Below, one piece after another: positions 7,231 to 59,179 of a stretch of 64,000 nucleotides of DNA. Location: the NCBI GenBank assembly GCA_036172245.1, contig JAYWIR010000018.1, forward strand, positions 1,178,001-1,242,000, written 5' to 3'. The stretch comes from Raillietiella orientalis. Its lineage: Eukaryota. Numbering within the stretch: the first letter of the stretch is position 1; every line of letters starts with the position of its first letter. The position numbers were made by a program, and so were the translations under genes. A model generated the notes under the pieces. The model did not search any database. It was not told where the DNA came from and was given only the letters and a program-made list of their open reading frames with translations.

Positions 7231-7887
7231 ACTCTGTACTTTATTGAGATCGGCAATGCCATGGAACGCGATCCTGAAAGTGCTGCCCACCGCATGTTTA
7301 AAGAGACCCTTAATCTAATCAAATGCATTTCATCTCTGTTCCATGGAGGAGGTGGTGGCGGTCCTGTAGACAGATTGCTAGCAGTGCTTAGTTTAAGATG
7401 TCGGTCACTATTGTATCTAAAAATTGGGACACATGGATTGCAATAAGTTCCCCAATGAGCAGCGTGTTTTAGGAGAATACCTACACAAGTGTCAGCTAGC
7501 TGCTCACCAAGGCACAAAACCTGTGGATGTGATATCTCTCCTGTCACCAACTCCTTCCCTAGCTAGTTCCGTGGCCAGCGTGGGTTCTCACAACAGTGGA
7601 TACAGTTCCGGAGAGCTCCAGAGAGGATCTGCGGCTCCTACGGATGGCACTTGTCCTGAAACTCCCGTGATCACATCAACCGTGGACGCATGTGCTCGTC
7701 TGTTACGATTGAACTACCAACTCTTCTCGCTTCACCATTGCCACGAATTGTGGGAACAGGGAGATGTCCTGGACGAACGCGATTTAGAAGATCGCGATGT
7801 GCCGGAGTTTTTTGTAACATTGGATCAGCAGTGCGGACCTTTAACTGCACAGTTTCTTGAGTCGGTTGGTCTCATACACACGCTTTG
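7231..7887 (+). pseudogene. lilli: Intronless fragment of an AF4/FMR2-family (lilliputian/AFF) C-terminal homology domain, frameshifted
   Basis: LYFIEIGNAMERDPESAAHRMFKETLNLIKCIS..DRLLAVLSLRCRSLLYLK, then after a frameshift SPTPSLASSVASVGSHNSGYSSGEL..LHHCHELWEQGDVL..EFFVTLDQQCGPLT, and after a second shift SFLSRLVSYTR. These match AFF/Lilli CHD motifs. There are two frameshifts, no introns over ~650 bp and no start context. Confidence 0.85.
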
Positions 7888-7949
7888 ACCAGAATTTCAA
7901 CTCATTCTTCTTTGGTCTCACAAGAGGCCAAAGTAGGATGAGCTCAGAG

Positions 7950-8250
7950 AGGCCGCCAGTGTGGCCGACGCCTCGACGAGGGCGGCTGCACGGTGGACTC
8001 ACCTGCAAAAAGTCGTTAGGGAGGTCACCACCACACGCAACCGCTTTTAGGAAGGAAGGAACGTTTGATAGCAAAAGTCCTTGTTCATACCGTCCTCCCT
8101 TTTCCTACTTTATTTATTGTTCCTTCCCTCCGTTCCTCACTTCCTTAGAAGCCAGCCGGCGGTCATCCCCAATGAACTTTTTTTTTTTTCCTGACATCTT
8201 AGGGGAGAGCGCTCCCCTCACTTGTGGTTTATAAACGTGACCGGCTGCGA
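7950..8250 (+). mobile_element. LINE 3' end / 3' UTR fragment (same family as 62890-63380)
   Basis: Colinear with 63120-63380 (cgcctcgacgagggcggctgcacg..cctcccttttcctact..cacttccttagaag..aatgaacttttttt..catcttagggga..cttgtggtttata). Confidence 0.75.
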
Positions 8251-9435
8251 AACCCACAAAGCAGAAGACTTCGTCCTGTTCCAGCCCCTACGTATCCGAA
8301 ATGCCTTGCACGTGCTGTACAGTGTATTTACGAAAATGTATACAGAACTGCTTCCTAAAATACGGGGACGCGCTGTACACATTTTTGATGGAGCGGTAAA
8401 TATCGTTTGTGTGTGACCCACGCTCATCGATCGATCCAGTTCCAGCCCTTCCTCCTAGCCCTGCCGGGAAACGACACTCGAAAATAAATACACGCGAGTG
8501 CACGTCTGTTGAACACGTCAGCGGGCACGCGATTTCTTTGCGGAGGATTCAGCCCCGGCGCGGCGCCAAGGGCAGCGGACCGGATGACAAAAGGACGATA
8601 GCACCGGACGATATAAGTGCAGAGACTTGACCTCGGACGACGTGACCACCCGAGTCCTCCTTCGCTCTGTTTGGTGGTTCGGACTCTCGTGATAATGAGC
8701 GCATCCCGAACAGGATGTTCACGCCACCTCCAGATGTTTTGTGCTCGCCCCTCCAACTCCAGCGCTGGCAAGCCTCAGATCAACACCCGCTGCACCAGCG
8801 TCAGCCTCCTCGAGTACCAGAAATCTCCTACGAATCTGGAAATTCCAGGTGGCGCGCCTGCAAGTACAAGGGGAGGTCAGAGCAGCGTTGCTTCGGTGCA
8901 GATGATCCAGGAGGTCATACTGAGCAGAGCGAAGCTCGGATGATCGAGAGCGCTTTGCCTGATGGCTTCGTGACCCGCCCAGGGAAACGTTCGCCCCTCC
9001 GGAAGTGACGGTTGCCTCCTCACCGGCTGCCCTCTGCCCGCGTACGAGGTCAGCGGTGGTCGCCGAAGCGGAGGAAGAGTGCGGTCCCTGCTTGCATCCC
9101 AGGGAGCCCACCGTGAAAGTGGCCTCCCTTCGCTGAGAGCGAGACTCCATCACGGAGCGGACTGTCACCATGGCGTGCGGATGCAGCGTCTCGTTCTCTA
9201 AAGAATCGTGGTCGTCACCGAGAGGTCGACGCATCCCGTCCCTATTCGTTCGTGAACTCTTCCCTCCTGAACAGGGATTCGGACTTTGTCGCTTCGGGCC
9301 TGCAGACTCCCGACGCTTCCTGGCGGCTTTCTTCGGGTCAGTCCAACTGGAGCCGCAACACTGCGGTGGACTGCCGACTGGAGCGCCTTAGTCAGCAAGA
9401 GGACTCCTTTGTTTATCACTCGGTCATTCCGGGAC

Positions 9436-10610
9436 TTTATTATAAAAAATAAACATACATGTGTAGGGTCATCGGCCCTATATTGTCCGAAAATGCTCGG
9501 AACCTGCCGAGTAACCGGCACGCAGGCCAAGGAGGTTCGCCTTGGCAGAGGGGGAGGGAGGCAACAAAAATAAAAATAAATAAAAAAAAAATTCTAGGGG
9601 GCATGGGAAAGGATCACCGGGTGCTGGAGGGCATCCTCTGCATCCTTTCCAGGATGTTGACAAGTTTCAGCCGAGTATGACCCAGATACATCATCTCGCT
9701 GTCGTCCGCAGGAAGCACAGGGAGAAGCAGATGGCCTCCCTGTCGCGCCTTCCTCCTCTTGTGTAGCTCCGGACCGCCTCAATCCTGCGTAGGCAACAGC
9801 AAAGAGCTACTGGGGATGCAGCAGGCGAAAGGGCGTCGCTCACGAAGAAGCGCTTCATCATATCCCTGAAATTGTCCGTCAGTGGGCCAAGGACCGTTAC
9901 GTAACGCAACCACAAAGGCTGGAGGGCAACACAGTCTACAAGCAAGTGCGGAAGGGATTCCCGTTCCCCGCAGCTGCAGCAGTTCGGGTCCACCATCCCG
10001 GGTCCAGTGGAACCAGCAGGCGTTGCACGAGAGACACCAGGGCAGCAGCAGAAGTGCCGACTCGTGTCACTTCAGGCGGAGAGTCTGGTTGTTCTTCAGC
10101 TCTGGAGGCCACTCGAGGTCTTTTTGTGAGATTCTCAGCAGCTCACCCCAGCGCAATAGTCCTTTCGATGAGACATTTGGAGTTGCAGCATTCGTGAGCT
10201 GGCCCGTGGTCCAGCCACCTAGTTCCCTCGTCTTCTGACTGATTTTGCAACTGATCTCCCATTTAACTGGCTGGTTACTGCCCAGGTGCTCCCTGAAGGA
10301 GAGCAGCGCTGAGGCTAGAAAGGTTCCTTGCGCTCACGCACACGTGATGAGTTGCAGGACCTCAGTCCTGCAGCGAGCGGTTGTTGTGGAAGGAGTGCAG
10401 CAGTCGCAGCCTCACCCCCAGGCTCGCTTCGTTGTTCTTGGTCCACGTGCAAACGATTTCCTGCAGCCAGGCACTACCGTTTGCGAGCCGGCAGAAGATC
10501 CAGTTGTTGGTCAGCTTGCCCACTCGTCCGAGCTCCAGTTTGCAGCTGGACACGTTGTGTCTGCCGTACCAGGAACTAAGACAGTTCTGTGTAGTCGGTG
10601 GCTCGCTTGA
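9436..10610 (-). mobile_element. 5'-truncated, degenerate L1/Tx1-like LINE (zf-RVT-type C-terminus plus 3' UTR), copy A
   Basis: The minus frame reads PNCCSCGERESLPHLLVDCVALQPLW (CxxC..H..C). It is followed by a T-rich 3' UTR ending in AATAAA (tttatt 9436-9441). Homologous to 17794-18770 and 26815-27955. Confidence 0.8.
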
Positions 10611-11299: not shown

Positions 11300-11640
11300 G
11301 CTAACTTTCTCAGGAGCTTGGTGCAGGATCGAGGTGTCCCCGGGCCTTCGAGCGTTTGACTGCTGTCCAGGTCACGCGATCCCGACGGTGCCAAGAACCC
11401 CCCCCTGGCGGGCATCTGGAGATCGAGAGCGCCGCAGATACGTGGCGCTGCTCCGCACACCTGAGAAGCCACTGCCGACGCTATCCTCGCTTCTCCGGGA
11501 GACGCCACGATGAGGTTGTCAAGCGCACCGCCAAGGCATCGCACGGGAGGTGGAAAGTTGTCCCTCGAGGGAGCACCGGGAGTCAACTAGCAGCCGCGCC
11601 TGAATCTCCTCTCGAGAACAAGAGGTCGAACCGTCTTCCT
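11300..11640 (+). mobile_element. Remnant of an RLE-type non-LTR retrotransposon (R2/NeSL/Utopia group) C-terminus
   Basis: CSAHLRSHCRRYPRFSGRRHDEVVKRTAKA resembles the H..C..RH(D/N)xVV motif that precedes the restriction-like endonuclease. The downstream PD motif is not cleanly preserved. Confidence 0.45.
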
Positions 11641-13289
11641 GAACGCAAGATCTTTCACCGGAAACGGCCCGGAAGCATTCGCGCTGGCTAGGTAGGGGAA
11701 AAGTAGAAAAGCGGACGTCCAGGAGGGTCGCGGTGCCCCTCTCCCGGCGATCTCCCTCCTCTCTCGAAAAAGGAACTGTTGAATCGGAAGCTTCCTGGAT
11801 TGGTTTTCCACACCTTGAACGGGAGACACTCGGGAGCGAACCCGTTCCTCTGGAACCCTCCGGCAGGGAGAGGACTCCAAGGGGAGGGGGGGGGGGCAAG
11901 AAGATCACCCGATGTCTTGAGCATAAGCTTGTCCTCCGCTGACCTGATCCTCTGCATGGCCGGGTAGGCGGGGAAGGAAGCCACCCACGTGACACGAGGG
12001 ACCCTCCCTCCAGCACGCCAACTGCAGATCGCACTCGGGAGGGGGGGAGGGGGGATCTTCGAGGCAGCCTGTGGGCCAAATTCGCGGACATGCCCGTTAT
12101 GCGGACGGTCCCCTACTCCGACGCGAACTCCCTGTTCCCTGGGGATGAAGGAGAGATTTATTCAGGGCCGGAGGAACCGCAGATGCTCACAAATCACCAG
12201 GACAGGAAACCGCAGTCGTTCGGAAGATCGGGAGAAAAGAGGATCGAAGCGGCAGCCACAGAAATGCCTCTTTCTCCATCCGTCTACCCCCACGGGGATG
12301 GACAGCGGCGGAAGCGCGCCAAGCTCCCCACTCGCCGGGTTGAGGCAAGCCGGGAAATATGGGGTTCAGAAAGAGGGGGGAAGGATCCCAGGCTGCTTCC
12401 GTGATCACCAAGGGTCTGCCGTTTGCACTTCGCACGCTGCCTGGGGCTACACGAGTTGCGGGAACACCCTCTGCGCTTCTTTCGAGAGGAGCTTTGATCA
12501 TCCAGAGCCAATGTTGTACGTACGTACGCGTACAACACACGCGCGTGTTCTCGCGTTTCCTTCCGGAGAAATTCTCCGGCAGTAGTCCTGTCTCTGGGGA
12601 AACGAACCTGACCTTGACGCCTCTGATCCGGTCTGGACCCTCTGCTCGGCAGCTTCCAGGTCGTGGACCGGAAAGGATGGGCGTCGGAACCCTCTTCGGA
12701 AGCGGCATGTTCGGAGCGTGCCGCCCGTCACTTGACGAGCCTCCGCCGAAGACGGGAAGAGAGTCTCCACTGCCGAGGAGAGTCGCGCTGGTCTGCGTCC
12801 CGGAGTCCTGGCAGGTCCTGTTAAATGTTGGCCGTTAGTGGGGCCTTGTACTACGTTTTGTTATGATTTCTGGAAGAGTTTGAACAAACATCCCGGCGTA
12901 TCCGGGTGGCATCGTCGAAGACGGGGACCGCATTTGACCTCAAGAATTCAGTCTGAGATCCGGCCCGAGACCTTTTTCAAGGCGCCGCACGAGAAAATTC
13001 GTCCACCCTCGCCACGGGCGCAGGGTGGGGAGCCGGACGAGCGGGCGTTAGTCCGAGCGGAGCTTCTTAGGAGGAGCAAAGGGACGAGCGGGACGCCAGG
13101 AGCGGATCCCGCGGGAGATCCAGGCTCTCTCTGCAGTAGCGGCAGCGGTCCGTGACTCCCCGTCGGGCCGTCAAACTCGGGGAGGCAACCGACTGACACG
13201 CGCGCGCGCGGGAACGCCCTCCTCCGTTAGCGCGACCCCTTTCCTGCCAGCGGAAAGTGCGGATGAGGGGAAATTCGGTCTCCCAGTTC

Positions 13290-13640: not shown

Positions 13641-14266
13641 TGACTTTCCCTTACTCTCGGTCATCGCCGCGTTCCTCCTTTCTGGAGGAACGAGAGCCGC
13701 AGGGCGTCGTCTGCCCGCTGTGGACCCGTCGGTTGCCTGCGAGATGGCAGCAGACTCCACCCCGCATCTCGATTTTCATCGGAATCCAGAAAGTGGTCAT
13801 GTCATCGGATGCCGGGCATCGAGACTCATTGGAGAAAATAAACCCTCCATCCCTTTCCCCATAGCAGAGCAAGGATATCGAGGGGGAGGAAGGGGGGAAG
13901 GCCACTCGGTGTCTTGGGGCATGGGTCTGCCCTCGGCCTACCTGCTCCTTGGAAGGGCCGGGTAGGCGCCGCGTGGAAGGGGCTTCGTTGGACCGAAATT
14001 CACTGGAACCACGGTGGAGGGACCGCCGTTCGGGGAGACGACGCATCCTCCACGAGTGGGCTCTGCAGAGATGACCACTTCAAGAGACGGGTGAAACTCA
14101 GAAAGATAAAAGAGAAATCGCACCTTAAAGACCCGTTTTTGAGACCCGAAACTTCTTCAGAGTCAGGCTGACTGACTTTCCGTTAGGTGGTATCCGGCTG
14201 AGTGGCTCTTGCGAAAGGTTCACTGAGTTCTTCTTTTTCCTTTTTTTTTTTTTTTCTCCATCCAGA

Positions 14267-15518
14267 GGCATCCCCCGGCCTGTGGGTCCGCCCCTGGAAT
14301 TTCCTCTCCAGAGGGACCCCTGGAACCGCTCCTTCTTTCCTCGTCTGAATAGAATCCATAAGAAATGCCCCCAAATTTCTACGAAGGGCGCTTCCCGAAG
14401 GGAGAGGGGAGCTTCTTGAAACCCTGGAAAGTCATCAACCAGCTCCGTGGTACTCGATGAGGCTCCACTTCCACAACCGGATGAGAACCTCGGAGGACTT
14501 CCTGATTCCCGGAAAGGCCCCGAAGGGTCAACTTCCGACCAGTCAGCGGGGACTCCGGCTTCCATCGGTGCCGCACCCGAATAGGCCGACCAGCGTCATC
14601 CTGCCGGGAAGGGGACTCGAAACACGCGACGCAGTTTCCGGATGCGAAGGCGATGGTCTGCGGACGCCTGGCCTTGGTGAAGCCGGCGGAAACTCCGGGA
14701 GAGGCCCTCAACGAGTCTCGGAACGAGAAAGAAGTGGGGGTGAGGGGTGAGGACGGATCGAACCCAGCTGGTCTCCCTGAGGACAGGTGGTGGCGAGGCG
14801 CCCTTCGAAAGGGAAGGCAAAGAGGAACTTCGGCCGGTTGAGCAGATGACCTGGAATTCGAAATGGTCTCGACCTGCTTCCAGACTCCGGATGGGTGAGG
14901 ATTCCGGCTGCGTGAGCGCTACCGGATATACAGGATCCCTCCCGGTGGATCAGTGTGCGCGGAGCGGAACCGGCGCTGGGGAACGATGGACCAAACATCG
15001 GGCTACCTCAGGCCGGTGCAGCGCTTGCCACCTGGCAAGGAGCGCGTCGGTCGGTTTTCATGGACGGGGAGCGAAAGCGGGGAAATGGAGTGGGGGACAG
15101 GAATCCATGGCAACCGCGGAAGTCGGAATCCTCCGAACAGACCGTCTCTGGGAACGGGTGGCTCTCGGACGCCGGGAGCCGACACCACAACAGCCGGGAG
15201 AGGACCGTTCCTGCCTTCCAGAAACGTTCGCTGCTGCTGGAGGACGGCGCAGGTCGCTCGTGCTCCCCCGGCAAGCGGTCCGGAGAAGGAGGGTCGCGAC
15301 GGTGAGAGGAGAAGGAAATTCAGACGTGAGTCTCTCCCGGAGCCTCCGCTGCTAGCGCAACGCACGACGCGGTCAGCCTTCGAGCGCGGTCCAGCCGATC
15401 CGACACGACCGCTGGTTGCCGGGAAACGCACTGCGCTTCTTGGGAAATCCCTTCCGAGTGATCTCACACAGCCAGGAAACGCTCCACGCGAAGAAGGGGT
15501 GGGTTGAATTTGAGCGCC
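14267..15518 (+). repeat. Left arm of a ~1.25 kb near-perfect inverted repeat (LINE 5' UTR/ORF1-like sequence)
   Basis: Reverse complement of 19520-20770. The ORF track gives identical translations in mirrored positions (coordinates sum to 35038). Only a 1-bp C-run indel near the outer end was seen. Confidence 0.97.
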
Positions 15519-16644
15519 GTCATCGGATGATGCGCGTGGACCAGATAATGAGACACGTTACAAGGAGATCAGACGGATGTGGTCCACGAAGAAGGGTAAT
15601 AGCTCGTGTTGAACTACCAAGAGGTCTGATGACTGCCTTGTTAGGTCGAGCAGGGAAACGGTCTACCATTGACCCTACGTGGCAAAGGAAGCAGGCACCC
15701 AGCTGAAAGCACCAACTCAAAATCGTGTCTAGAAGCAAGAAACTCTGGCAGAAGGAATCATGCCGGTGATCCCTTGGCTGCTTCCCGTCCTTAGTGACAC
15801 AGGGAGATGGATCTACCAGAGACCCAGAGTTACCTTGAATAGAACCGTGTAATGGAGGCAGGGAGGCTACTCCCGCATCCTCAGGTACATCGAGATGGTG
15901 AGGGGGAAGTTCACCCACAGGAAGCATGAAGTGTGGAAAAACCACAGTGACTATGTGTGGTCCAGGATGAACAAGAAAAACCTTTACCTTCTCATACCCT
16001 GAAGAGGATAAGAACATCCATGCCCTCCAGGAAGCTGCCAATCGCCATCGAAGTGACACCGTCAACCTGTTGCCGATTGGAACGACATTCTGGAAGAGTG
16101 ATCTGCTACCGGACACTCATGGTAACCTCCTAATGCTTTATCACGAAGGAAAACTGAATGGTTCCAGAACGAAACACTGGACGATCAACCGAATGGAAGA
16201 GGATTGCAGGAGATGTGGTGACTTGGATACGAGACACCACGTCTTGACCTGTTCCACAATGCACCAAGAATGGCAAACCCTGAAGAGGTTCATAGGGCTG
16301 CCAAACAACAAGAAGATAAAAGTCCTCGCCGGGATGTTCCAGAGAACTGCAAACGTGCCCCGATGGTCAAAACGACTATCGCCCTATTCATCACCTTATG
16401 CGATAGTGGAAGATGAGGAAAGACAGCATAGCTATATCTCTCCTGGAAATCCTGAAAGGGATTATCCAAAGTTAGATTGGCATTAGGGGCTGTGGAATAG
16501 TGCAGTCCTGGACGTACACCGTCCAGACACACCTAACGCTCAGTCCCCCCTATTGTATAGGCCCAAGTGCAGTCCCCCAAAGGAAATGAACTTAAGGAAA
16601 CAGTTGATCTGTGCCATGTCTTGAGTGAATGTAAATAAATAAAA
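15519..16644 (+). mobile_element. Degenerate LINE 3' portion (different subfamily) inside the inverted-repeat spacer
   Basis: HGNLLMLYHEGKL..EEDCRRCGDLDTRHHVLTCSTMHQEWQTL (zf-RVT-like), ending in tgtaaataaataaaa at ~16630-16644. Confidence 0.65.
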
Positions 16645-17793
16645 TTCCCACACCCCTCGTGGGAATGGGGAAAATCATAGCTTGTGGGGTGCCGACAACC
16701 GGAATTGCAGACTACCTTATGAAAAGACGCGAAAAGGAAAGCGTCCGATGAGCGAAAGATTGAGGAGGCATGCGGAGAGATGTAAGCGAGGGTGGCCGAG
16801 TCCGCGATGGATGAGGAGGGGAAGGGGAAGGAAGCTTTCTTCCCCCACTCCCTATCTCCCTTCTCGGCGATTAGGACACTTCCTGGAACGATTGTGTCCG
16901 AAAGGAAAGGGGACTCCCCGCTCCCTTTCTCCACCAGAGCTCCCGCTGCCGGCAGCCATCGTAAAGTCTCGTCTCCGTCTCGGTGATAGACCGGGATGCT
17001 CTTGACTACAGCCTCCCTCCCGAGTTCTTGGGACTCTGGGTCAGGCGGCAGCAGGGTCTCCCCAATCGCGAACGGCGGTGTCGCCCGTCACGCCGCGGAG
17101 GCTCACGCGCGGGACTCGCCATGGGCTGCGAAAGCACGTGACCGCGGCTCCATCTGCGGGTGTCTCCTAGAAACGTGACGCCGGAAGCGGATTCCATTCG
17201 GTTTTTCTGGATCGGAGGCCGATCGGACGTGTCAAAGGTTTGGATCCGTGACTCGGAAAGCAAATTAAATGCTTCGAGCTGCGGGCTTTCCGCGCAGCCG
17301 GGGTCGCTGGGCCTCGAGAGCGGCGACTGAGCTCCGTGTCTGTCTTGGCCGTCGACACCTCCAGGAAGACCAAAAAGAAGAAAAAAAGAAAAAAAACTAC
17401 CGCCTCCGCCACACACGGACGCGATCTTTGGTCAGCACTTCGGATTTCTCTCTGGAACCAGAAGGAACGACTTCTGTGCCCCCGCTGGAAAGGTAAGGTA
17501 GCCATCGAAATCACCACGCGCGGGAGTCAAAGCTGCCGATTGGCGCGCCGACAAGAACCCCCGAGACGCAGACTTCTGCTGGTCGAAATGGCCGTTAATT
17601 AGAGATTCCTCGAGATAACGCTGCGCTTTCCGTTCCGTTCCATTTTTTATTCCCCTCCTCCTCTCCCCACGTTCCTCGTGCGTGGGCAAAAAGCAGGGAG
17701 GAGAGAGAATGATGGTGGCGGTGATGTACGACGACGTCATCCGTAACAGCCGGGACGTGTGTCAGGGACACACATTCCGGTCACGCCGGAACG

Positions 17794-18770
17794 TTTCTTG
17801 TAAAAAGGACAACAAACTTACAACGGTTGTTATAGGGCACACGTGGTCCTGCCATGCCAAGACTGACAGTGGACCTGCCGGATTTCCGGTCTTCAGACTG
17901 CCGAGGTTCACCTTGGCAAAGGAGGGGAGGGAGAAAACAAAAGAAACAAAATAAAAATAAATACAAAAAAGAAACTGGAGGGCCGAAAAGAGATCACTAC
18001 CCCACTGGAAGGGGTCCTCTGCATCCTTTCCAGGATGCCGGCTAGGTCCTAGTAACGCCCAGGTGGGAGCCATTTTGCTTCTATCCGCAGAAACCGGAGC
18101 GCACACTCGATGGCGCTTCCCTTTCGTTCTCTCCTGCTTCAGGGTCACTCCAGGCCGCCGCAATCCGCAGCTCCAGCAGCAGAGAGCTGCTGGGGTTGCG
18201 GCTGACTGCAGGGCATCCCGCAGGAAGAGGAGACGTGAAACGTCCCTGGGATTGCCAACTAGGGTCCCAAAATTTTTCCAGAGAGACCGGAGGGTAGCAC
18301 AGTCCACAAGCAGGTGCGGGAGGGAGATTCCCGTTTCCCGCACCTGCGACAATCCCGGACTCATCCTCCCCAGTGTACAGTGAGGAAGTCGTAAGGAAGA
18401 CCTCAGAGCAGCGGAAAAAATGTCTCCGAGCTGGGTTCCTTCATCTTCGCCACACGTGTGCCAACTGTTTCTTGTAGGCAAGTGCCATACAGTTGGCGGG
18501 GAGAGGGACGCACCTTTCGGCAGGTCGCGGCCGGCAGTGAAAGATTGCCAGAGAGCTTCCCGCTGGGTGACCGGATGCGGTCTGGAAGCGGTGGAAGTCG
18601 TGGAGAGCCTCCCCCGACCGTGTGGGGACACAAAATGCTGCGGGAACGGAACGGCGCCACTTTTGGAACAACTCCATGCTGAACCACAACGACGGCAGTA
18701 GTCGTCCTCAATGTCAGTAGGATGCAATGAGCAGCAGTGAGACACACAAGAGGTTCCTCGCACGGGAAGA
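17794..18770 (-). mobile_element. 5'-truncated L1/Tx1-like LINE, copy B
   Basis: The minus frame reads ISLPHLLVDCATLRSLW..LFLRDALQSAATPAALCC. It carries the same T-rich 3' UTR (atttatttttattttg..cctcccctcctttgccaaggtgaacctc) as copy A. Confidence 0.8.
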
Positions 18771-19519: not shown

Positions 19520-20770
19520 GGCGCTCAAATTCAACCCACCCCTTCTTCGCGTGGAGCGTTTCCTGGCTGTGTGAGATCACTCGGAAGGGATTTCCCAAGA
19601 AGCGCAGTGCGTTTCCCGGCAACCAGCGGTCGTGTCGGATCGGCTGGACCGCGCTCGAAGGCTGACCGCGTCGTGCGTTGCGCTAGCAGCGGAGGCTCCG
19701 GGAGAGACTCACGTCTGAATTTCCTTCTCCTCTCACCGTCGCGACCCTCCTTCTCCGGACCGCTTGCCGGGGGAGCACGAGCGACCTGCGCCGTCCTCCA
19801 GCAGCAGCGAACGTTTCTGGAAGGCAGGAACGGTCCTCTCCCGGCTGTTGTGGTGTCGGCTCCCGGCGTCCGAGAGCCACCCGTTCCCAGAGACGGTCTG
19901 TTCGGAGGATTCCGACTTCCGCGGTTGCCATGGATTCCTGTCCCCCACTCCATTTCCCCGCTTTCGCTCCCCGTCCATGAAAACCGACCGACGCGCTCCT
20001 TGCCAGGTGGCAAGCGCTGCACCGGCCTGAGGTAGCCCGATGTTTGGTCCATCGTTCCCCAGCGCCGGTTCCGCTCCGCGCACACTGATCCACCGGGAGG
20101 GATCCTGTATATCCGGTAGCGCTCACGCAGCCGGAATCCTCACCCATCCGGAGTCTGGAAGCAGGTCGAGACCATTTCGAATTCCAGGTCATCTGCTCAA
20201 CCGGCCGAAGTTCCTCTTTGCCTTCCCTTTCGAAGGGCGCCTCGCCACCACCTGTCCTCAGGGAGACCAGCTGGGTTCGATCCGTCCTCACCCCTCACCC
20301 CCACTTCTTTCTCGTTCCGAGACTCGTTGAGGGCCTCTCCCGGAGTTTCCGCCGGCTTCACCAAGGCCAGGCGTCCGCAGACCATCGCCTTCGCATCCGG
20401 AAACTGCGTCGCGTGTTTCGAGTCCCCTTCCCGGCAGGATGACGCTGGTCGGCCTATTCGGGTGCGGCACCGATGGAAGCCGGAGTCCCCGCTGACTGGT
20501 CGGAAGTTGACCCTTCGGGGCCTTTCCGGGAATCAGGAAGTCCTCCGAGGTTCTCATCCGGTTGTGGAAGTGGAGCCTCATCGAGTACCACGGAGCTGGT
20601 TGATGACTTTCCAGGGTTTCAAGAAGCTCCCCTCTCCCTTCGGGAAGCGCCCTTCGTAGAAATTTGGGGGCATTTCTTATGGATTCTATTCAGACGAGGA
20701 AAGAAGGAGCGGTTCCAGGGGTCCCTCTGGAGAGGAAATTCCAGGGGCGGACCCACAGGCCGGGGATGCC
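19520..20770 (-). repeat. Right arm of the ~1.25 kb inverted repeat
   Basis: Reverse complement of 14267-15518. On this side the ORF1-like frame (..HAKKGWVEFERPKRNLGRLVHH..) continues inward past the arm boundary. Confidence 0.97.
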
Positions 20771-23700
20771 TCCAGAGGAAAAGGTGGTGCTCTTCGGTAT
20801 TCCCTAGCAAGAGTAAGAGTAACGGACTTGTTCCTCCGGAATCTTCCTGGATTCATAGGATGGTCCATCCAGGGTTGTCCCTTAACTTTCGAGCCCGCAG
20901 AGGTGGCATGGGCAGCGCTGAAGAGCTCCGTGGGCCTCCCGACAAGGAGGCGGACGATTCTTCGGCACGTGGGGAATCCCTCAAAAAGGGGAAACCTGAA
21001 AAAACAAAGCAAAAAATCTGGAGGGGAAGCTGCAGCGAAGCAGAAGATTCCGTGAAGATTTCCACAAACCTCGCGTCTGGCTCCCTCAGGCAAATTCTGT
21101 CACTCTGCCGGGACCCTGACGTTCCTGCAGGAGCCTCTCTCCGATTCCCATCTCTCGGTCTCGACTCCAGCACGGATCCCAAGTCGTCATTTTCTTGCTT
21201 TCTCTGGTCACGTCTTGAGCTACCCAAGTCAGCGAGAGTAAAAGCACCAACGACAGAAGGAAGCTACATGATGAGCAAGGGTCATCTCGGGAAGCTGGTC
21301 CTTGGGATCCAGCATCGCTTCATCCTTGAGGACTGGGGAGAGAGCTGGGTGCGCTCCTGTTTCCTCCCCTTTGGGAGGCCTTGGATGTACCTTTTTGGGT
21401 GGCTGTCGGGCAAATCCTTCCGGTGTGGGAAACTTTGGGATGAGGAGGAGAGGAGGAAACCGAGGTCCATCCCGGCTCTGTGGGGTGGAGACACTGATAT
21501 TCAGCTCGAGGGGCACGGGAAGTGCGTACGGTTTTCAGAAGGCATGTAGGTAGGCTGTTAGGGAGGAGCAGAAAGACAGCGTTCTCTTGGGTGCAGCAGC
21601 AATGCCGCCGCAGCCATGTAAGTAGTGGGCGGGAAGGTTTCTGTGACTGGATGTGTGTGGGGGGGGGAAGGCTTCTGTGTAGGCCGCCGTTCCTGAAAGC
21701 CACCTGGACGATCGGGAAGATTTTTGCAAGTCATCCCAGGATCCAGAGGCAAGAGAAGTTCGAAGAAAGCAAGGGAGGAGTCTAATGAGCCGAAAAGCAT
21801 CCCTTGCAATCGTCGTCATCATTGCTGTTGCTGCTGCTAAATGTCGATGTGAGAAATCAGGTTGCGCGACTGCTGATTGGCTGATTCAGGGCAAGAACGC
21901 CAGGTGAAAAGACATCTCCAACTACTGACATCATTTTCCTCCTTCCATTCTTCCATGGCGACGGGAAAATCGCCAGACCTTTGGCAGGCTAAGCAGTAAA
22001 CCGCCATCAATGCCGACCGGATGCTGCTGCTCCCAAGACGATGATGGAGGCACCGGCGGCGACTTTTGGGAAGTCCACCCGACTCTTGCTTTTGTGTGCG
22101 GGCCGAGTCTTTCGGGATTCGCTCTGGATGGAGGTATTTCCTGCGGTCTCCCCACTCGGGGACCAACGGACTTCCTTCGCTTCCTTCTTTTCGATCTTCT
22201 GGCCACTCCGGTAGAGCTGCGGTTGGATATGCTGGCCCTGAAGATAGTGGCCAAGCAAGTCAGCGCAGCCGCAGGACCTAGACTCCAGCACAGCAGCGTC
22301 CGACTGCCGATCTCCCGCAACCGGACGAGCAAGTTTCTCTACTGCTTTCGAGCTTCAGAGCGGTGGTCGTCACGATCTGCCCGACGTCACTTTTGCCTGC
22401 GTCATCCCCAGATCTCACGACCTTCCACGAGATTCCGCGGCCATGCTTTTCTGCGTCACGCAACGCACGACTAGGAGTGCAGAGGAAGGGAAATGGGGGT
22501 GGAGTGGAAGATGAGAGACGAAACTGATCATGATGGACGCCCTCATGGCCTCACGGCTACCGATCGGCATTCTCCTCCCCGAAGGAGCCGCTCGGCCGCA
22601 TTTGGAGACTCCGGGGAGGGGAGTAGCCGCCTCGATGAATCACCAAGCGACGCGACGCCTCTACGGGATCGCGTCGAGAAGGCGACACGCTGACGATGGG
22701 AGATCCTGGACGGCAGCCCAGGGACTCCTGAATCCGGGTCATCTCAGCAAAACGAACTCATCCCAGGGAAAAGCAAACGCGTGCTCTCGCCGTCTGACCG
22801 CCCGAAAACACGTCGGCATAGTCACATAAGGGCTCGCTAAAGAGAAGGCAGGAAATGTCGGAACATCGGGAGGAACTAGTGCGCTGGTCGCCCGCTCTCT
22901 CCTTCTAGTCGCCGGAGTCCTGAGATCTCAAGACTGGGAGATGAGAGAGCTGCAGACTGCAAGGATGCCCTCAAGATGGCTCGGCAAGGCGATGACGGTG
23001 ATTCCAGCACCTGGGGCACCAGGGTTGACACACCGGCGGAGACACCCTCCAGGTGAACCGAGCGCCGACCTGCTCGGTCGAGACGGCGAACCACCTCCGG
23101 TCCCGTGCCAAGCCGAAACTGCGCCGGGCGGAAGCAGGGCCGCGGCGCTGAGAGCGAGGCTGCGAATTTTCCGCTCCGCGGCATAGACCTCTACGCAGCG
23201 ACTCCCTCACCTCTGTGGGAATTGGCATTCTTGTGCAGAAAGGACTCCGACTTGGAGTCATCACTCCCCTCCCTCCTCACGTAGTGGTCCAGCATCTCCT
23301 CCCTCGCATCTCAGCCGGACTTTCATCCGATGCGAGGCGTCGCCAACGTCACATTTCTTTCGCGGTACCCTTCCCGCAGGGGTCGCGTCCCTGAACTGTG
23401 CCCCAATCTGTGGAATGTGGAGGCCTCCAGGAATGGTGGCGGAGGCTGGTTGGCATCATCGCTCTTGCAACAGGAGGGAGGACACAGTCCGAAATGTGCT
23501 GCGGAGGTTCTTCACGCCGGGAGAACTCTCGACGGGCGCCGAGATCGCAGCGGTGGATCGCGTCCGCGCCATTATCACGGCCCGCCACATGCTGGAGACA
23601 ACGACGCACCGAAGGGAGGTCACTGGGATGGCGGTCCACTAGGTGAGGGCAGTTTCAAGGTGGCGTTCGCTGCAAGAGGAAGACAAGGAGGCGATCGTCG

Positions 23701-24759
23701 GCATATAGCGCCGGTTTTGGAAGGAAGGGACGGAGGACACCGTTGACCCTTGTCCCTAGCTCCCCTCTATTCTATTCTATTCTATTTTTTTCACCTCATT
23801 CCCCACTCCCTTTCGCTCCGTAACTTTTCTAGATCTTGTATGTTGATCCCGATGCATGCGGAGCGGGATCAAAGACCTCTGCCCATCCCTCCTCGTGATT
23901 CCTCATTTTTTTTTTTTCGTACCCCTTCCCCTCCTTTCCATTCCGGACTTTCGGATATCCCTACCTGCGTGTTGATAGACGAACTTTCGTCTACGGTTGT
24001 AAGCCAGAGTGTTCCCAGCTGGTTTCTTTTCATCAAATGAATACCCCTGGGCGCGACCGAGTGAAAAACTTCGGCAGTGCTGTGAGCACCCGCTTGGACT
24101 AGAGGCTCCTGAATCTCTCCAAACACCCGACTCTACCTAAAGCTCGAAACGCTTTGGATCCTTCCGCGCATCTCCAGGAGATTCCTCGAGGAAAAGGAAG
24201 AGATCAGCATGGAGGAGTCATCCGTCTCGAACATTTCGGAGCTCCCGAGGAATCGCTGCTCCCTTCCGAGGTCCATCGTCACGGCGAGAGTTCTTCTGAA
24301 CCTGCCACGTGATGTCTTTTTTTGGGGTGAGTGGGGTGACATTGCTTGCATCCCCGGCAGATGGAACGAAGAAGACAAAGGACTCTCCAGTCAGCAAGGA
24401 TGGAATTTCACACCTTAAGAGAAGTGCTTCCGTAGCTGAGGCACTGGGAGTGGGTTGGGTGGGTGGGAGGAAGACAAAGGATTCAACATCTAGAAGAACC
24501 GGCTCCCTTCGGAGAAACAAAAATGGAGCAGTCCCCTCCGGGGTTTTGTCCGGAGAGAATGAGGAAGTAGGTTCCCTTCTGGGTTACCTTTGGAGACAAC
24601 CAGGGTGGAGGATTCCCTTTGTGGATCCCTCCCAGTCGTAAAGGTCACATTCTTGGTCATGTTCTTGGGCGCCGTCTGTTGTGAGAACCTCCGACTCCCA
24701 CTCGGTCACTGCTGGAAACGAACCTTGAAACTTCTGCCTCCCCCCCTTCCGATGCAGGT

Positions 24760-26814: not shown

Positions 26815-27955
26815 TGCAGGGAAGTTGGGTGTGGATGGACAGACAACTGACGCTCGCCACATCGATGCCCTATTCCAAGACTCAACAAGCTGTGCCTGGT
26901 ACGGTAGTGAGAAGATAGTAGTGCCTGGTTGCAGGAAACTGTTCGCACGTGGGCGAGGAACCAGGAGCGATGCCTGGAACAGGCGCAACGATTTCTGTAC
27001 GGTCCTTACAGGAGCTGCTCGCTCCGGGAGATCCTTCAAGATCCAGGGAAGAGTGCGTGAGCAGAAAGAACCTCCCTTGCCGCAGCGCTGCCCTCCCTGA
27101 GGGAGTTACATGGGTAGCAGTCTTTCGGCTACGTGGGAGAAACCTCCGGAAAGCTCCGGAAGGAGAAGAAGGCTGCGTGAGTTGATGAGAGCCCAGTTCA
27201 CGGACGCTGCGACCCCGAGTGCCCCGCCTCGAAGACTTTTGCGCTGGTGCGAGCTACTACTGGATATTCCAGAGGAAGATCTGAAGTGGACCCTAGTGCT
27301 TTTGGACGCGCACGCTCCCTCATTGAAGTGGTAGGAGTTTGTGTTGATGCTGCTGCACTGGAGTCTCCCGTGCGATGCCCGCAGGCATCACTGGACCCGA
27401 ACTGTGCCAGGTATGGGGAACATGAATCCTTCCCGCACCTGCTTGTGAATTGTGCTGTCCTCCGGCCCCTCTGGGAACGCTTCGCCGCGACCCTCGGAAT
27501 CCCCAAGGGCAACTTCGGGAACGTTTTAAGGTCCCTTCCCCTACGAGACGCCCTTCGACCGGCAGCCTCGCTAGCAGCTCTTTGTTGCTTACGCGGGATT
27601 GTAGCTACCTGGAGCGACGCAAGAGGAGGACCGAGCGACAGGGGTGCCACATCTACTTTGCCATCAGCTTCATCAGCTTCATGGTTCCACCTGAAGGACG
27701 TGCCGGCATGCTGCAAAGGATGCAGTGGAGCGCCCCCAGCAGAACGCGATCCCTTCTCGCACTCTCAGATTTGTTTGTTTATTTTTATTTTTGTTTCTTT
27801 TTTCTCTTGTCTGCCCTCTCCCCTCTTCTGCTGTGGTGGACTCCATCGGTCTGCGCACCGGCTACCCGACAGGTTTCCGTTAAATTGCACGTGGTCAAAC
27901 TACCGGTCGATCTACCACAGAGACCATGACTGTTTATTTTTTTATATGAAATAAA
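26815..27955 (+). mobile_element. 5'-truncated L1/Tx1-like LINE, copy C
   Basis: DPNCARYGEHESFPHLLVNCAVLRPLWERF..LRDALRPAASLAALCC. T-rich 3' UTR with AATAAA at 27950-27955. The 5' part (gtgcctggttgcaggaaac..cacgtgg) matches copy A near 10440-10475. Confidence 0.8.
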
Positions 27956-28027
27956 CCCCCTGGCGCGCCCGGGTAACAATCCAACACGTGACGCAACGCA
28001 ACCGTTAGGAACTGGGAATCCGGAACA

Positions 28028-55490: not shown

Positions 55491-57624
55491 TGCTTCGTCC
55501 CTGGAGTCCCGGACGAAGAAAGGGGACGCGAGTCTTAGGGTGTTCCCTTCTTCCGAGAGAGCGCCCCGCGCTTCCCCTCCCTCCTGCGTCCGTGCCTCTG
55601 CGCATTCCCGGGAGGAAGTCGGGCCTCCTCCCTTTGCGTCCTTCCCGTCATCCTGGACGCCGTTGCGGATCCTAACGGTGCGGGGGGAGCCAAGGCGCAT
55701 GGGCAGCAGGCGCGATGCCATCCCGCCGGCCGCGACCGGTGACGACTAAAACGTTCGGCTCCGCCAGCAGCAGTAGCCCCACCAGCGCTTGCGCGTGGCA
55801 CCCCGCACTCTGTCCCCCGTAGCAACCGGGAGCCGCCTCCGCAAAAGGCTGGTTTCTCCTCCCTTCTTTCCTTTTTTTCTTTACTGCAGCGGCCCACAAG
55901 CAGCGGGAGGTTCTGGCAACCAGGCTACTTCGTCCAGCTCCACGCCCGCTGGAACCGACCCGGGGAAGACGCGGCGCGCTGGATGCCAGGACTCGCGACC
56001 GGAAACGTAAGGCTGTCACAGGGCTTTCCCAGCCCGAATCGAAAGCTGAGGCGGGGAGCTGCGCTTCGACACCTCCTCCTCGCGCGGGAACAGGGAAGGT
56101 CACATGCGCGCGCTCCATGGCAACGGCCGCTCAGTACCTCAAACGAGGAAAAAAGAAGCCTTCCGGAGAGACGACCCCCGCGCGTCCACCTGTGCGCCCT
56201 CCCACAGGAGGAGGGGGAGGTGGTCACGAACGCGCTCCCGGTCAAGGGGGAATCCGCCTGGTCCCAAAGGGGGGAATGCAGGCCGATCAATCTTCGCCGG
56301 AGAAGGGGCGAGCGAGGAACTCAGGAAGACGAGACCTGACATCAAGGATCGATGTGAGGGGAGGAGGGCACTTCCGAAATAGGTGATGGGGGAAGGCAGC
56401 TGCGAGGGCGAACTTCCCGTCGACGGGGAGAAAATGAGGGGAAGAGGACGGAAGCGCTGTCCTGGGAACCCCGATCATCTCGGGAGTTTCCTCCTTCCTT
56501 TGCCCCCCCCCCTTCCCCCCCGCTCCACTCCGGACTGGTCGGAATTCACAAAGGCCGATCGTGGCGCCGTTGCAGCGCGGTGGCGGCGGTCCCAAGCTGC
56601 CCGGTGCCGCGACGACGGCTAGCCACACGTTCAAGTGAAACCACTAACCCCACCCCACCCCACCCTCTTCCTCCTTCGCCTCATGCCTCAGCGGGGCGAC
56701 GGAAGCGGTCGTTCGCAAAGGAACCTCCCCCCATAGCAGGTGCAGAGACCCTCCTTCTATCCCACTCCACCCCATTTCACCCCCCTCCCTCTCCCCTCTC
56801 TCTTTCTCTCCCTTCGCCGGCTTTCCACCGCGCAGCCTTCCCGCGATCACCGGCCTTGCGGATACGCATCCTACACAGTCGCGCTTCCACGACCCGGGGA
56901 GCCCCCACGAAGGGACGGCCCTCCTCCCTGCGGACGGTGATCCCGTGAACGAAGGTCCAGGAAGCCCGAAAACTCCCTTTCGCCCGTCGCCGAGGAAACG
57001 CGATGCCGGCCGGCCGGAAGGCAGTAGCAAGAAGGAGGAAGGAAGGACTCGCCCGCCAAGCTGGGTGGTTCCCGGAAGGTCGCCCCAGGGGGGTCAGCTC
57101 CCACGACCGCCCTCGTCTCTTTGGCCCCTCACCGGTACGGAAGTCGTCTGACCCGAGGGATTCCGGGGGAAGACCACTGCGTCGGTCGTCCCCACTTCCG
57201 CCTCGACCGCTTGGGTTATGAACGACCCATCCCCCTCTTACGCACACCCCCTCACAAAGAGGGACCATCGAGGGAGCAGTCGGGAGACAGGAAGGAAGAG
57301 AACGCCCACCTGCTTTCGGGTGGACCCCGTCCTTTGCCGGAGAAGTCCATTGCTCTCGCGCCACCCGTTGCTAGGGGCGCAGGAACCCCGTCCCGGAGCG
57401 GGCACAGGAAGGGAAGGTCATCGACTGCCCAAGGGCAGCACCAGGAGTGGCGAAGTGCGCGAAACGGGGGGATCCAGGAAAGGAGGAATGGATGGGAAAC
57501 GAAAGACGACACTCCTCCTACGAGCGCGTGCTTCGCCCCTGGATTCCCGGACGAAGGAAGGGGACGCGAGTCTTAGGGTGTTCCCTTCTTCCGGGAGAGC
57601 GCCCCGCGCTTCCCCTCCCTCCTG
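55491..57624 (+). repeat. Pair of ~96-bp direct repeats (55491-55586 and 57529-57624)
   Basis: tgcttcg(t/c)ccctgga(g/t)tcccggacgaag..cgcgagtcttagggtgttcccttcttccg..gcgccccgcgcttcccctccctcctg occurs twice with a few substitutions. Confidence 0.9.
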
Positions 57625-59101
57625 TCGCATCCGGCACGCTGACCGAGACAGAGAGAGACTCCTCGCCCGGACCACGCATGCGCGGCACACGCCGCTCCGT
57701 CGGTCTGCAAACTCCGAGCGGGGTCATCTGCGCGGCGAGGGTTCAACACTGCCCTCCCTTCTTTGCAGCGCGTTCCGTTCTTCCAGACCCGGGAACCCCC
57801 GAGGAACTTCTGTTTTCACTCCTCCTCCCTACGGGGAGAGGAAGGGCGCGACCCCCAGAGCCCTGAGGAGGGCGATCTCTTCGTGGAAGGCCGGAGCGCT
57901 TTCGCTGCGCCACGCGCGCTCGGAACGGAGATGGCCCGTCGCTCAAGTCACGCGCCCCCCATCGGCAAGGACCACCCGGAAACCGCGGGCGCGGAACGGT
58001 CCAAAACGCTGCCTGTACCCATCCACCCACGTCCTCCGGTCCATACCGTCTCCAGGACCGATCCCGCGTGCGGCAGCAGTGCCGGCGGCCTGCACCTTCC
58101 TTCCTCCTCGACGCAAGAGGACCACGGAACGCGCTACGATGCCGCAGGCACGAGAGGTGGCAGCACCATGACAAGACGCCACGCAGCACGCGGAACGTTT
58201 TCCGTCGCGCCATCCATGCCGCCGGCACATGCCGTGTTGACGTGAACAACCGCATGTAACGCCCAACATGCTACTTACTGCTCGAAAGAAAGAAAGAAAG
58301 GCACGCATACGCACACAGCACGACAACGTGACCTCGATCGCCGGGTAATCTCCAGGTCATGGGTGATACCCATGAACAAATGATACAAGCGGGAGCGCTC
58401 AGCTCTCCGAAGCCCTGTTGACAAAGAGGGGGCTGCGGAACGGAGGCGCATGCGCGACCAGCGGCCTGCCTGCATGCCGCGCGCGGCCCTTCAAACCCCC
58501 AGCCGGGAAAGAAGCTGCACGCTTCAGCACTGCTCTGAGTGCACTGTCTTCACACGCATGCACGCACGTCTGTAGCGTACCGCTCGTGTTCACCTACACT
58601 GTACAAACGTGCATGGTACAGCATCCGCGCACATACGGTACGGCAGACACGTAAGTAATGCGCAGTATGCACGCATCTTGTCGTCGTATCCATGCGTCAC
58701 GGAGTGGCCGAAGGATTTTCGTTTATTTTTAGGCAAAATCAGCGCTGTCATTGTTCTGCGCTGGTGGACTCGCAGAAACGCCCATAGCAACGCCGGAGCG
58801 CGGATGCTGTTTGCCGTCGTTCCGCTCTCGTTTGCAAAGAGGAAACGTTTCCGTGAACGACGCCGTTGAAAAGTTGAAGACTCGGACGCGACAACCTTCA
58901 TCCCGCTTCATCCCACTTTCAAGTCAGGAACCTCACGCGTTACGGAAACGGGATCCGGGGATGGGGGCGGAGGAGGAGCATCATCATCATCACCGAACAG
59001 CCAGCGAGTCGGCTCGCTCCGCGGCTGGACTCGATACGTGGAAGCGCGCCGGTGATGCCGGACACGTCACTTCGCTTCCCCCATCCGACCCCCTTCCCGA
59101 G

Positions 59102-59179
59102 TTGTATAGACTGTACAATGTGATTAAGAAAGTAAATCTGTCCTTGCGGAGCCTCTGCTTGCTCCCAGTCCGGAGGCAA
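59102..59179 (-). pseudogene. Isolated Yorkie/YAP-type WW-domain fragment
   Basis: LPPDWEQAEAPQGQIYFLNHIVQSIQ matches the LPxGWEQAxTxxGQIYxLNH pattern of Yki/YAP WW1. The second Trp/Pro (WEDP) is absent, there is no good splice acceptor, and it is an AT-rich island in GC-rich flanks. Confidence 0.65.

Follow-up and report, generated by a model that had tools for sequence, protein, structure and literature searches.

Partial, probably non-functional copies of the last coding stretches of AFF and MED13 among LINE tails in Raillietiella orientalis

Two pieces of host coding sequence, one related to AFF/lilli and the other to MED13, lie within a 64,000-nucleotide stretch of the Raillietiella orientalis genome (contig JAYWIR010000018.1, positions 1,178,001 to 1,242,000; hereafter the window). 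We regard them as old, non-functional partial copies, each corresponding to the last coding stretch of its gene and each starting at a former intron/exon boundary, and give this reading a probability of about one half. AFF and MED13 are essential, normally single-copy regulators. Their pieces sit between two live genes, one a multi-exon S28 peptidase gene and the other a RhoGAP-START gene, in intergenic DNA that is rich in LINE tails (Table 1). We see no sign of function, nor of the bias towards RNA polymerase II regulators that a reading of the sequence alone had suggested; only two of its three cases are secure.

Table 1. Features of the window, numbered from its first nucleotide.
Feature	Position	Strand	Evidence or remark
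S28 peptidase exons	2472-2669, 3167-3517, 3580-3723	+	GT..AG introns of ~56-90 nt
Polypyrimidine tract ending in YAG	7190-7217	+	5-20 nt before start of AFF homology
AFF homology, first part	7222-7426	+	AFF4_CHD, E 2.3e-11; tblastn, P0001 residues 338-407
AFF homology, second part, +1 frame	7421-7846	+	tblastn, P0001 residues 470-590 and P0002 residues 1489-1583; frames read
Probable last AFF residues, third frame, borderline	7845-7900	+	local score 27-31 against shuffles
5'-truncated LINE tail D	7957-8257	+	~80% identical to 63120-63374; nhmmer 7980-8256, E 1.4e-46
LINE 3' fragment A	9408-10477	-	self-comparison, nhmmer; zf-RVT E 0.012 in ORF 9694-10071
LINE 3' fragment B	17770-18400	-	same family; self-blastn, alignments, nhmmer
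LINE 3' fragment C, with CCHC (zf-RVT-like) motif at 27355-27612	26918-27985	+	self-blastn; nhmmer 27699-27984
MED13 C-terminal pseudogene piece	27973-28874	-	P0010 residues ~1610-1911/1917 of 1954; tblastn, Pfam, PDB
Polypyrimidine tract ending in CAG	28875-28915	-	precisely at start of MED13 homology
RhoGAP and START domains	36.4-38.1 kb		live neighbour gene
First two-thirds of a WW-like domain	59108-59179	-	Pfam WW, below cut-off; PDB YAP1, ITCH, NEDD4L
LINE 3' fragment E, longer relative of tail D	62880-63401	+	alignments; nhmmer

Homology of the first piece to AFF, as proposed from the sequence alone, is borne out by Pfam and tblastn over ~7222-7900 of the forward strand. The ORF at 7048-7446 matches AFF4_CHD (PF18876) at profile positions 50-117 of 264 with 44.1 bits, above the curated cut-off of 24 bits; the ORF at 7421-7888 matches weakly (16 bits, E 0.0088) and falls below it. 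In tblastn, the first block of P0001 aligns to 7234-7425 (51% identity, E 2e-16) and the second to 7535-7846 in the next frame (E 4e-12), where P0002 also matches. The closest AFF proteins in the databases (2 hits) are 31-38% identical overall and 43-51% in blocks, and a PDB search with the second ORF returned nothing meaningful. The bee gene model P0002 is without the stretch that matches 7250-7535; exon boundaries may lie there. The reading frame shifts by +1 within an A-run at ~7421-7426, leaving open frames of 132 and 155 codons without an in-frame stop, and the piece amounts to ~220-230 terminal codons of the gene. A second frameshift after 7846 is probable from the sequence, on a borderline local score (shuffle 95th percentile 27, maximum 33). 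Neither profile positions 1-49 of AFF4_CHD (tblastn with P0001 and reading of frames) nor any other AFF exon (tblastn with P0001 and P0002) was found in the 64-kb window.

Could this piece be the live last coding exon of a real lilli/AFF gene, its frameshift a homopolymer assembly error and its upstream exons beyond the window? It has a good acceptor signal at 7214, its only secure defect is the shift in the A-run, its ORF terminates close to the natural C-terminus, and it has no stop, against six in the MED13 piece, which is about as long. Against this stand the conserved C-terminal stretch after 'GPLT', which is lost in frame and returns weakly in another frame, the second half scoring below the Pfam cut-off, and the low identity to any database AFF. 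There is no upstream CHD exon within 7.2 kb, and an intron of the AFF gene would have to enclose the live, same-strand S28 gene. We consider a live exon quite unlikely.

The MED13 assignment is likewise upheld. The piece, on the reverse strand, gives tblastn E values of ~1e-34 to 1e-40 (best 6e-40 among 25 MED13 proteins) and matches Pfam Med13_C (PF06333) with 40.8 bits (E 2.2e-10; curated cut-off 26.1 bits), and a PDB search pairs it with residues 1863-1940 of human MED13 (E 6e-9). Alignments to P0003 and P0010 span 28874-28071, and an extra stretch reaches 27973, so that ~305 of ~1950 codons are represented. The piece is clearly dead: TAG at 28790-28788 and TAA at 28481-28479 are secure in-frame stops, and four more lie between 28310 and 28227, a stretch with a change of frame close to each end. 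The description of the pieces as disabled or truncated holds for MED13 and, by its +1 shift, for AFF, which has no stop. The closest database protein is 58% identical (25 hits), and none of 29 metagenome MED13 loci comes close to the piece in DNA sequence (best 81% over 42 nt). A sensitive tblastn search with 25 MED13 queries found no other MED13 exon in the 64-kb window. Weak MED13-like matches at 16.7-17.0, 5.8 and 40.4-40.6 kb (E 0.008-2) were judged on reading to be chance or low complexity.

What precedes the two pieces? The AFF homology follows YAG at 7214 and 7217, with 20 of 25 preceding positions pyrimidines; the start of the MED13 homology coincides with a CAG, with 21 of 25 pyrimidines before the AG at 28874. 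Counting both strands of the 64 kb, 94 YAG sites have at least 20/25 pyrimidines (0.73 per kb per strand) and 50 have at least 21/25 (0.39 per kb per strand), giving a joint chance of ~1e-4 to 1e-3 that both would fall within 0-20 nt of the homology starts, a coincidence noticed post hoc. The real introns of the S28 and RhoGAP genes nearby have tracts of this sort at their 3' ends. Polypyrimidine-YAG acceptor signals are not carried by mature mRNA, and their likeness at both 5' ends therefore points to templates with intron sequence. These would have been either genomic DNA, by partial duplication, or incompletely spliced nuclear transcripts, two routes that we rate about equal. Several observations count against the account. 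The MED13 tract is faintly similar to that part of the LINE tail which is rich in pyrimidines, though not significantly so (nhmmer E 0.69); the transcript route requires intron retention in two independent cases; and 3'-terminal pieces, together with the same-strand, 5'-truncated LINE tail downstream of AFF, are classic marks of reverse transcription.

Intron absence was judged by proxy, from the genomic loci of relatives, and for MED13 only. The piece runs uninterrupted across position 1741, where six relatives' loci have an intron (GT donor in 4/4 inspected), and is colinear across position 1630, where three have one. It possibly also crosses the near-universal intron position 1911 (14 loci), on the evidence of 6 codons at which the piece and the end of the LINE tail overlap. 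Of 29 relatives' loci, 14 carry an intron after the R of '...DVLR' and 11 do not, while in the other 4 the site is not reached; the piece has its 3' boundary 0-6 codons from that intron, and its 5' boundary ~7-10 codons from one that L005 and L029 have. With no intron where relatives have one, a DNA-level copy needs an intron-poor parent. There are genes of this kind, since L010-L012, on contigs of 14-137 kb, are colinear. Other genes of this genome are intron-rich.

The pieces resemble partial DNA-level duplicates, or exon relics, in being isolated, exon-sized and acceptor-bounded, in repeat-rich DNA with no other exons nearby; they differ in that MED13 would be a single ~900 nt exon where 6 to 14 relatives' loci have introns, and in that neither a duplication boundary nor a parent was seen. 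With processed or semi-processed pseudogenes, which are retrocopies of fully or partly spliced transcripts, they share decayed 3'-terminal parts, stops, frameshifts and, in MED13, continuity across relatives' intron positions; here, by contrast, poly(A), 3' UTR and target-site duplications are missing and the 5' ends carry intron-like signals.

The window holds eight LINE tails of 150-1070 nt, seven of them within 29 kb, which share one 3' end, form nested 5'-truncated copies and are without poly(A). The tails are genuine, but their identification as LINEs is weak, with matches to zf-RVT, the CCHC motif at the C-terminus of ORF2, below the cut-off (E 0.012 in ORF 9694-10071, and 0.036). A profile built from four copies finds three proteins, among them P0029 and P0030, in which zf-RVT scores E 6e-10 and 0.0022. 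Neither the 600 ORFs scanned nor the 49 ORFs of the repeat copies contain an RVT or endonuclease domain, and no homologue of the 350-aa LINE ORF was found among 6479 candidates. Copies A, B and C have diverged by ~35% (C against A/B ~65% identity by self-blastn), D and E by ~20%. These values agree with a greater age for the MED13 piece, which has six stops, than for the AFF piece, which has none.

Both pieces do end within ~70 bp of LINE 3'-end sequence, as had been claimed. On the AFF side the ORF ends at 7888 and tail D starts at 7957-7980 on the same strand, with 27-70 unassigned nt between AFF and D; on the MED13 side the homology ends at 27973-27990 and LINE C at ~27985 on the opposite strand, tail to tail. 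With eight tails in the window some proximity is expected by chance, and the seven in 29 kb put the likelihood of simple proximity at ~3% or higher. A host gene piece lies directly upstream of only one of the eight. On our preferred reading the tails would mostly be independent 5'-truncated insertions: C would have removed the last ~37 codons of the MED13 copy, and D may have been attached to the AFF copy from the outset or may have inserted later into its 3' UTR. Reading of the DNA downstream of the pieces confirms the reported absence of poly(A) and of a recognisable 3' UTR. Contrary to the first description, the pieces are not internal mRNA segments; both are 3'-terminal coding parts. No direct repeats or target-site duplications were found in the flanks searched at k=10 (at most 1 mismatch) or k=8 exact, a weak negative for copies this old, and the search for terminal inverted repeats of the kind expected from Pack-TIR-type capture gave only 14-20 nt chance-level pairs, none of them around MED13. 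Twin priming and 3' transduction were ruled out by reasoning on geometry as sources of the tail-to-tail junction, and a purine-rich run beyond MED13 on the forward strand, at ~45% G, was rejected as decayed poly(A).

Could the LINE machinery itself have made the copies, as the sequence-only reading proposed? A reverse transcriptase that started at the LINE's 3' tail, which has no poly(A), and switched to a host mRNA would place a host piece upstream of a truncated tail. According to PMC2104539, template-switch chimeras (U6-L1, mRNA-L1, MINE of Magnaporthe) have a 5' part that copies a cellular RNA in full length (feature i), a 3' part that is a 5'-truncated LINE, directly joined and in the same orientation, and short flanking direct repeats. 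Apart from the 27-70 unassigned nt between its two parts, the AFF layout would agree with features ii and iv of that description: AFF lies upstream of D on the same strand with no intervening poly(A), and D is 5'-truncated relative to copy E, which extends upstream into the CCHC motif as D does not. A copy primed on tails without poly(A) would itself have none, both host pieces are 3'-terminal, and MED13 is colinear across relatives' intron positions. The likeness to the chimeras in PMC2104539 is confined to AFF, however. MED13 lies on the strand opposite to tail C, a layout that template switching does not yield and that is contrary to feature iv, and neither host part is full-length, contrary to feature i. 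Direct repeats are absent, acceptor-like tracts stand at both 5' ends, and seven of the eight tails have no host piece directly upstream. The proposal thus keeps its support from the AFF layout, MED13 colinearity, missing poly(A) and close tails, and loses it on the MED13 strand, the acceptor signals and the repeats; we judge it unlikely.

Classical 5'-truncated processed pseudogenes from mature mRNA, with tails lost later to LINE insertions or deletions and acceptor-like tracts arising by chance, would also account for 3'-terminal pieces, for MED13 colinearity and for LINE C standing where the MED13 3' end is missing. The joint chance of two acceptor-like coincidences (~1e-3 or less here) argues against them, as do the lack of poly(A), 3' UTR and direct repeats and a local LINE family lacking any poly(A) tail with which to prime on mRNA. 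Nor was the missing MED13 C-terminus found beyond LINE C, where the highest local score, 39, is no better than those of shuffled sequences, which range over 25-48 (3/30 shuffles at least 40); a candidate at ~25.8 kb was discarded, the expected neighbouring motif being absent. We hold this explanation to be very improbable. Just as improbable, in our estimate, is that in this genome a poly(A)-less ('stringent') LINE family has template switching as its sole way of making host retrocopies, with nuclear pre-mRNAs that are partly spliced as the second template. Host gene 3' ends, with the end of an upstream intron attached, would then come to lie upstream of LINE tails. If true, this model would explain together why poly(A) is missing, why the pieces are 3'-terminal, why acceptor signals precede them and why AFF adjoins tail D, and MED13 would be a similar copy, disrupted later by tail C.

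A third fragment, at 59108-59179, had been called a Yki-type WW domain. The match to Pfam WW (PF00397) covers profile positions 1-21 of 31 with 23.1 bits, below the cut-off of 26.9, and its E value of 7.8e-5 per ORF becomes ~0.05 after ~700 ORFs scanned. Ten short ORFs at 58.4-59.5 kb yielded neither the second half of a WW nor any other Pfam domain, and nhmmer finds no LINE tail adjoining the piece. What remains is a generic WW-like match, and the Yki label is not established: YAP1 is the best single-domain PDB match (E 0.1-0.4), and ITCH, NEDD4L and MAGI2 score alike. The piece does not show the marks of Yki/YAP membership, namely a complete WW above the cut-off, a TEAD-binding region and tandem WW domains. 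It is a chance match or else a third relic, much more eroded than the other two.

Our verdict on the AFF and MED13 pieces is that they are ordinary pseudogene fragments, which came by way of DNA, pre-mRNA or mRNA. For routine annotation, these two fragments and the doubtful third count neither as genes nor as evidence of a capture hot-spot. If same-strand host pieces lay upstream of the tails more often than chance allows in this LINE family, which has no poly(A), that would show retrocopying without L1-type poly(A) priming, and would show the RNA pool on which it draws.

By what route did pieces of AFF and MED13 genes come to lie beside LINE tails? Were they copied as DNA, or did they pass through RNA? 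The MED13 homology runs in one frame from 28874 to 28071 (tblastn E 6e-40 with the database MED13 protein P0003; E 2e-34 for residues 1613–1880 of P0010, a second database MED13 protein) and resumes in a different frame at 28032–27973 (P0010 1898–1917). The piece is 3'-terminal, covering ~1610 to 1911/1917 of the 1954 residues in P0010 numbering. In-frame stops TAG (28790–28788) and TAA (28481–28479) both lie within well-aligned blocks, four more fall at 28310–28227, a poorly aligned stretch with a shifting frame, and the 'GRLGRIGHGELKGW' block has substitutions at positions that 12 relatives keep invariant. The MED13 piece is an old pseudogene fragment. Its last ~37 codons could not be located on the far side of the adjoining LINE, and tblastn found no further MED13 exon in the window.

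Metagenome contigs were scanned with 12 aligned C-terminal MED13 proteins plus the window piece, and 29 of 114 pattern matches were confirmed as MED13 loci. P0010 residues 1400–1954 were mapped onto these 29 loci (positions in P0010 numbering). The most widely kept intron among them follows '...DVLR' at ~1911: 14 of the 29 loci break there, 11 are colinear and 4 do not reach the position, with GT...AG in 5 of 5 inspected. Breaks also occur at 1741/1742 in six loci (GT donor in 4 of 4 inspected), at 1630 in three (GT...AG in the two inspected, L016 and L017) and at ~1601 in L005 and L029 (GT...AG in L005). Some of the 11 loci colinear at ~1911 may be transcript assemblies; L010–L012, among these 11, sit on contigs of 14–137 kb. 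MED13 C-terminal regions range from intron-less in L010–L012 to up to five introns, with L008, L009, L013 and L016–L023 in contrast to the intron-less loci. The window piece is uninterrupted at 1630 and 1741, where '...SATTQ' is followed by 'SPQ...', and its crossing of 1911 hangs on six ambiguous codons ('HVLDCY' versus 'YVLEGY' or 'HVLESY'). Because it lacks introns where many relatives have them, comparison with these loci favours either passage through RNA or a parent poor in introns.

The AFF piece corresponds to the final portion of the protein. Pfam AFF4_CHD matches 7048–7446 (E 2.3e-11, profile positions 50–117), and P0001, the closer of two AFF proteins found in the protein database search, aligns by tblastn in two blocks: residues 338–407 on 7234–7425 (51% identity) and 470–590 on 7535–7846 in the +1 frame (43% identity). 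AFF stays colinear between the blocks ('...LYLK', then 'LGHM...VLGEY'), which places the frame change in the A-run at ~7421–7426, as one extra base, either a true mutation or an assembly error. The conserved C-terminal stretch is absent in frame after 'GPLT' and returns weakly in the third frame (score 27–31; over 200 shuffles, 95th percentile 27, maximum 33), so that a second frameshift is probable, not proven. Profile positions ~1–49 were found nowhere in the window by tblastn and reading. Upstream of the piece lie a 24%-GC island with a ~12-nt T-run, at a distance of ~200 nt, and a low-GC stretch of degenerate tandem-like repeats (~68–72% identical, offsets ~200–330 bp).

Gene pieces, LINE tails, genes and repeats in the window.
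Feature	Position	Strand	Basis
Tandem-like repeats	4624-5120
24%-GC island (T-run ~6915-6930)	6900-7000
AFF piece	~7222-7900	+
MED13 piece	~27973-28874	-
WW piece	59108-59179	-
LINE tail (D)	7980-8256	+	nhmmer
LINE tail (A)	9408-9675	-	nhmmer
LINE tail	12765-12911	+	nhmmer
LINE tail (B)	17770-18047	-	nhmmer
LINE tail	23871-24069	+	nhmmer
LINE tail (C)	27699-27984	+	nhmmer
LINE tail	35576-35741	+	nhmmer
LINE tail (E)	63146-63399	+	nhmmer
Inverted duplication, 1254 bp	14265-15518 and 19520-20772
zf-RVT-like ORF	15971-16486
S28 gene	2472-3855	+
Extra S28 exon	2472-2669		Pfam, second scan
RhoGAP + START gene	36462-38135	-
Direct repeat, 293 bp	59914-60206 and 63513-63805
Inverted repeat, 105 bp	59816-59920 and 60930-61035

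The nhmmer tail model recovers eight tails: besides the five seed copies, it picks up three others at E ≤1.1e-5. The repeat copies are of unequal length with one common 3' end, a LINE signature. The family bears a C-x2-C...H-x4-C motif whose zf-RVT matches (E 0.012 and 0.036) are under the cut-off. A four-copy profile matched three proteins among 1.84 billion, two of them with zf-RVT (P0029 at E 6e-10, P0030 at E 0.0022) and one, P0028, a cysteine-rich repeat protein. Pfam searches of 600 ORFs of the window and 49 further repeat-region ORFs, chosen on the strand of each copy from 147 of at least 40 aa, detected neither a reverse transcriptase nor an endonuclease domain, and no poly(A) was seen at the tail ends. 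On such sequence features, 'LINE tails' is a fair name. The sequence-only reading had spoken of L1/Tx1-like debris: its LINE character is borne out by the nested copies and the zf-RVT-like motif, and its placement in the L1/Tx1 clade is not. Tail B and a further zf-RVT-like ORF occupy the ~4 kb between the arms of the inverted duplication (99.9% identity). This structure may stem from a recent duplication event or a misassembly, or may be a large foldback element.

Could the local LINEs have captured these mRNA segments by template switching, as that reading proposed? For AFF the layout is compatible. Tail D starts at 7957–7980 on the same strand, 70–93 nt past the end of the AFF ORF (stop at 7888) and ~27–57 nt past the predicted natural stop; copy E extends upstream into the CCHC motif and D does not, which makes D 5'-truncated right beside the AFF piece. 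This arrangement resembles features ii and iv of template-switch chimeras, as laid out in PMC2104539. The MED13 piece, however, adjoins the 3' end of tail C on the opposite strand, tail to tail, an orientation that template switching does not produce; the last four of its six codons past '...LR' overlap bases that also resemble the repeat-family tail end. With AFF as the only compatible piece, we regard template switching as an unlikely general explanation. Given seven tails in 29 kb, we put the chance that some end falls within 70 nt of a LINE end at a few percent. Neither direct nor inverted repeats flank the AFF or MED13 unit. LINE-1 recombination with diverse RNAs is reportedly the subject of a 2025 bioRxiv preprint, and one study (PMC8277862) is said to describe Pack-TIR duplications in animals.

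Both pieces begin at acceptor-like signals. At the AFF start, 20 of 25 bases ahead of the AG at 7214 and 7217 are pyrimidines, as are 21 of 25 ahead of the AG at 28874 at the MED13 start, both with a YAG end; real introns in the window finish in the same kind of tract. The MED13 start also lies ~7–10 codons from the intron of L005 and L029. Pyrimidine-YAG tracts would be carried by genomic DNA or unspliced transcripts and would be absent from mature mRNA. That the pieces are plain processed pseudogenes, with acceptor signals by chance, is the least probable of the readings weighed here: such tracts number 0.73 (at least 20 of 25) and 0.39 (at least 21 of 25) per kb per strand, and the joint chance of both coincidences, noticed post hoc, is about 1e-4 to 1e-3. 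In favour of this reading, both pieces are 3'-terminal. Is the AFF piece instead a live exon? It has its acceptor-like signal and no in-frame stop over ~220 codons, and it has the frame change in the A-run; we consider this very unlikely.

The WW piece, read earlier as Yki-type, is not assignable to Yki, YAP1 giving single-domain E-values of 0.1–0.4 against PDB and the low whole-sequence E of ITCH being a mere sum over its four WW domains. The Pfam match covers profile positions 1–21 of 31 and scores 23.1 bits (cut-off 26.9), and its per-ORF E of 7.8e-5 becomes ~0.05 once the ~700 scanned ORFs are counted. Neither a second WW half nor another domain was found by Pfam in 10 short ORFs at 58.4–59.5 kb. 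It is probably a genuine WW remnant of generic type, possibly a chance match. Nearby are a direct repeat (98% identity) and an inverted repeat (81%). A high capture rate or a bias toward Pol II regulators cannot be claimed from three fragments of which two are secure, and nothing points to any function of the fragments.

The window is eukaryotic DNA (GC 47–67%, CpG observed/expected 0.93), and arthropod proteins are the best database matches of its AFF and MED13 pieces. The window has 617 stop-to-stop ORFs with a length of 70 aa or more; Pfam scanning of 600 of them (the 17 shortest were dropped) gave matches at E ≤1e-3 in nine: Peptidase_S28 and RhoGAP in two each, and AFF4_CHD, Med13_C, START, WW and RamS in one each. 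The RamS match (E 9.5e-4), under the cut-off, was taken as chance. A second scan of 44 ORFs, namely 9 longer ones and 35 of 56 listed short ones (all 19 on the forward strand at 1–3100, all 6 at 35.4–37.3 kb and, from 57.8–60.6 kb, 10 of 31), added an S28 exon (E 4.9e-19). The S28 gene, a PRCP/DPP7-like serine carboxypeptidase, is live and multi-exon, with short GT..AG introns of ~56–90 nt; exons for profile positions 1–80 and 141–247 were not located in the window. The RhoGAP + START gene, of DLC/cv-c-like architecture, lies in 62–67% GC DNA, in which every frame is rich in long spurious ORFs, and an ~88-nt intron with GT..AG ends interrupts its RhoGAP domain. Since both genes are ordinary and intron-bearing, the fragments lie between ordinary genes and not in a gene desert.

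How, then, did the pieces arise? They are 3'-terminal, MED13 is intron-free at relatives' positions and AFF precedes a truncated LINE tail, as with RNA-derived copies; each piece also begins at an acceptor signal, and boundaries fall close to intron positions, marks of DNA or pre-mRNA. Two routes, to which we jointly give a probability of about 0.5, accommodate both kinds of marks: the pieces would be DNA-level partial copies of long terminal exons from intron-poor parents, or they would have arisen by reverse transcription of partly spliced nuclear transcripts, and we hold these two about equally probable.
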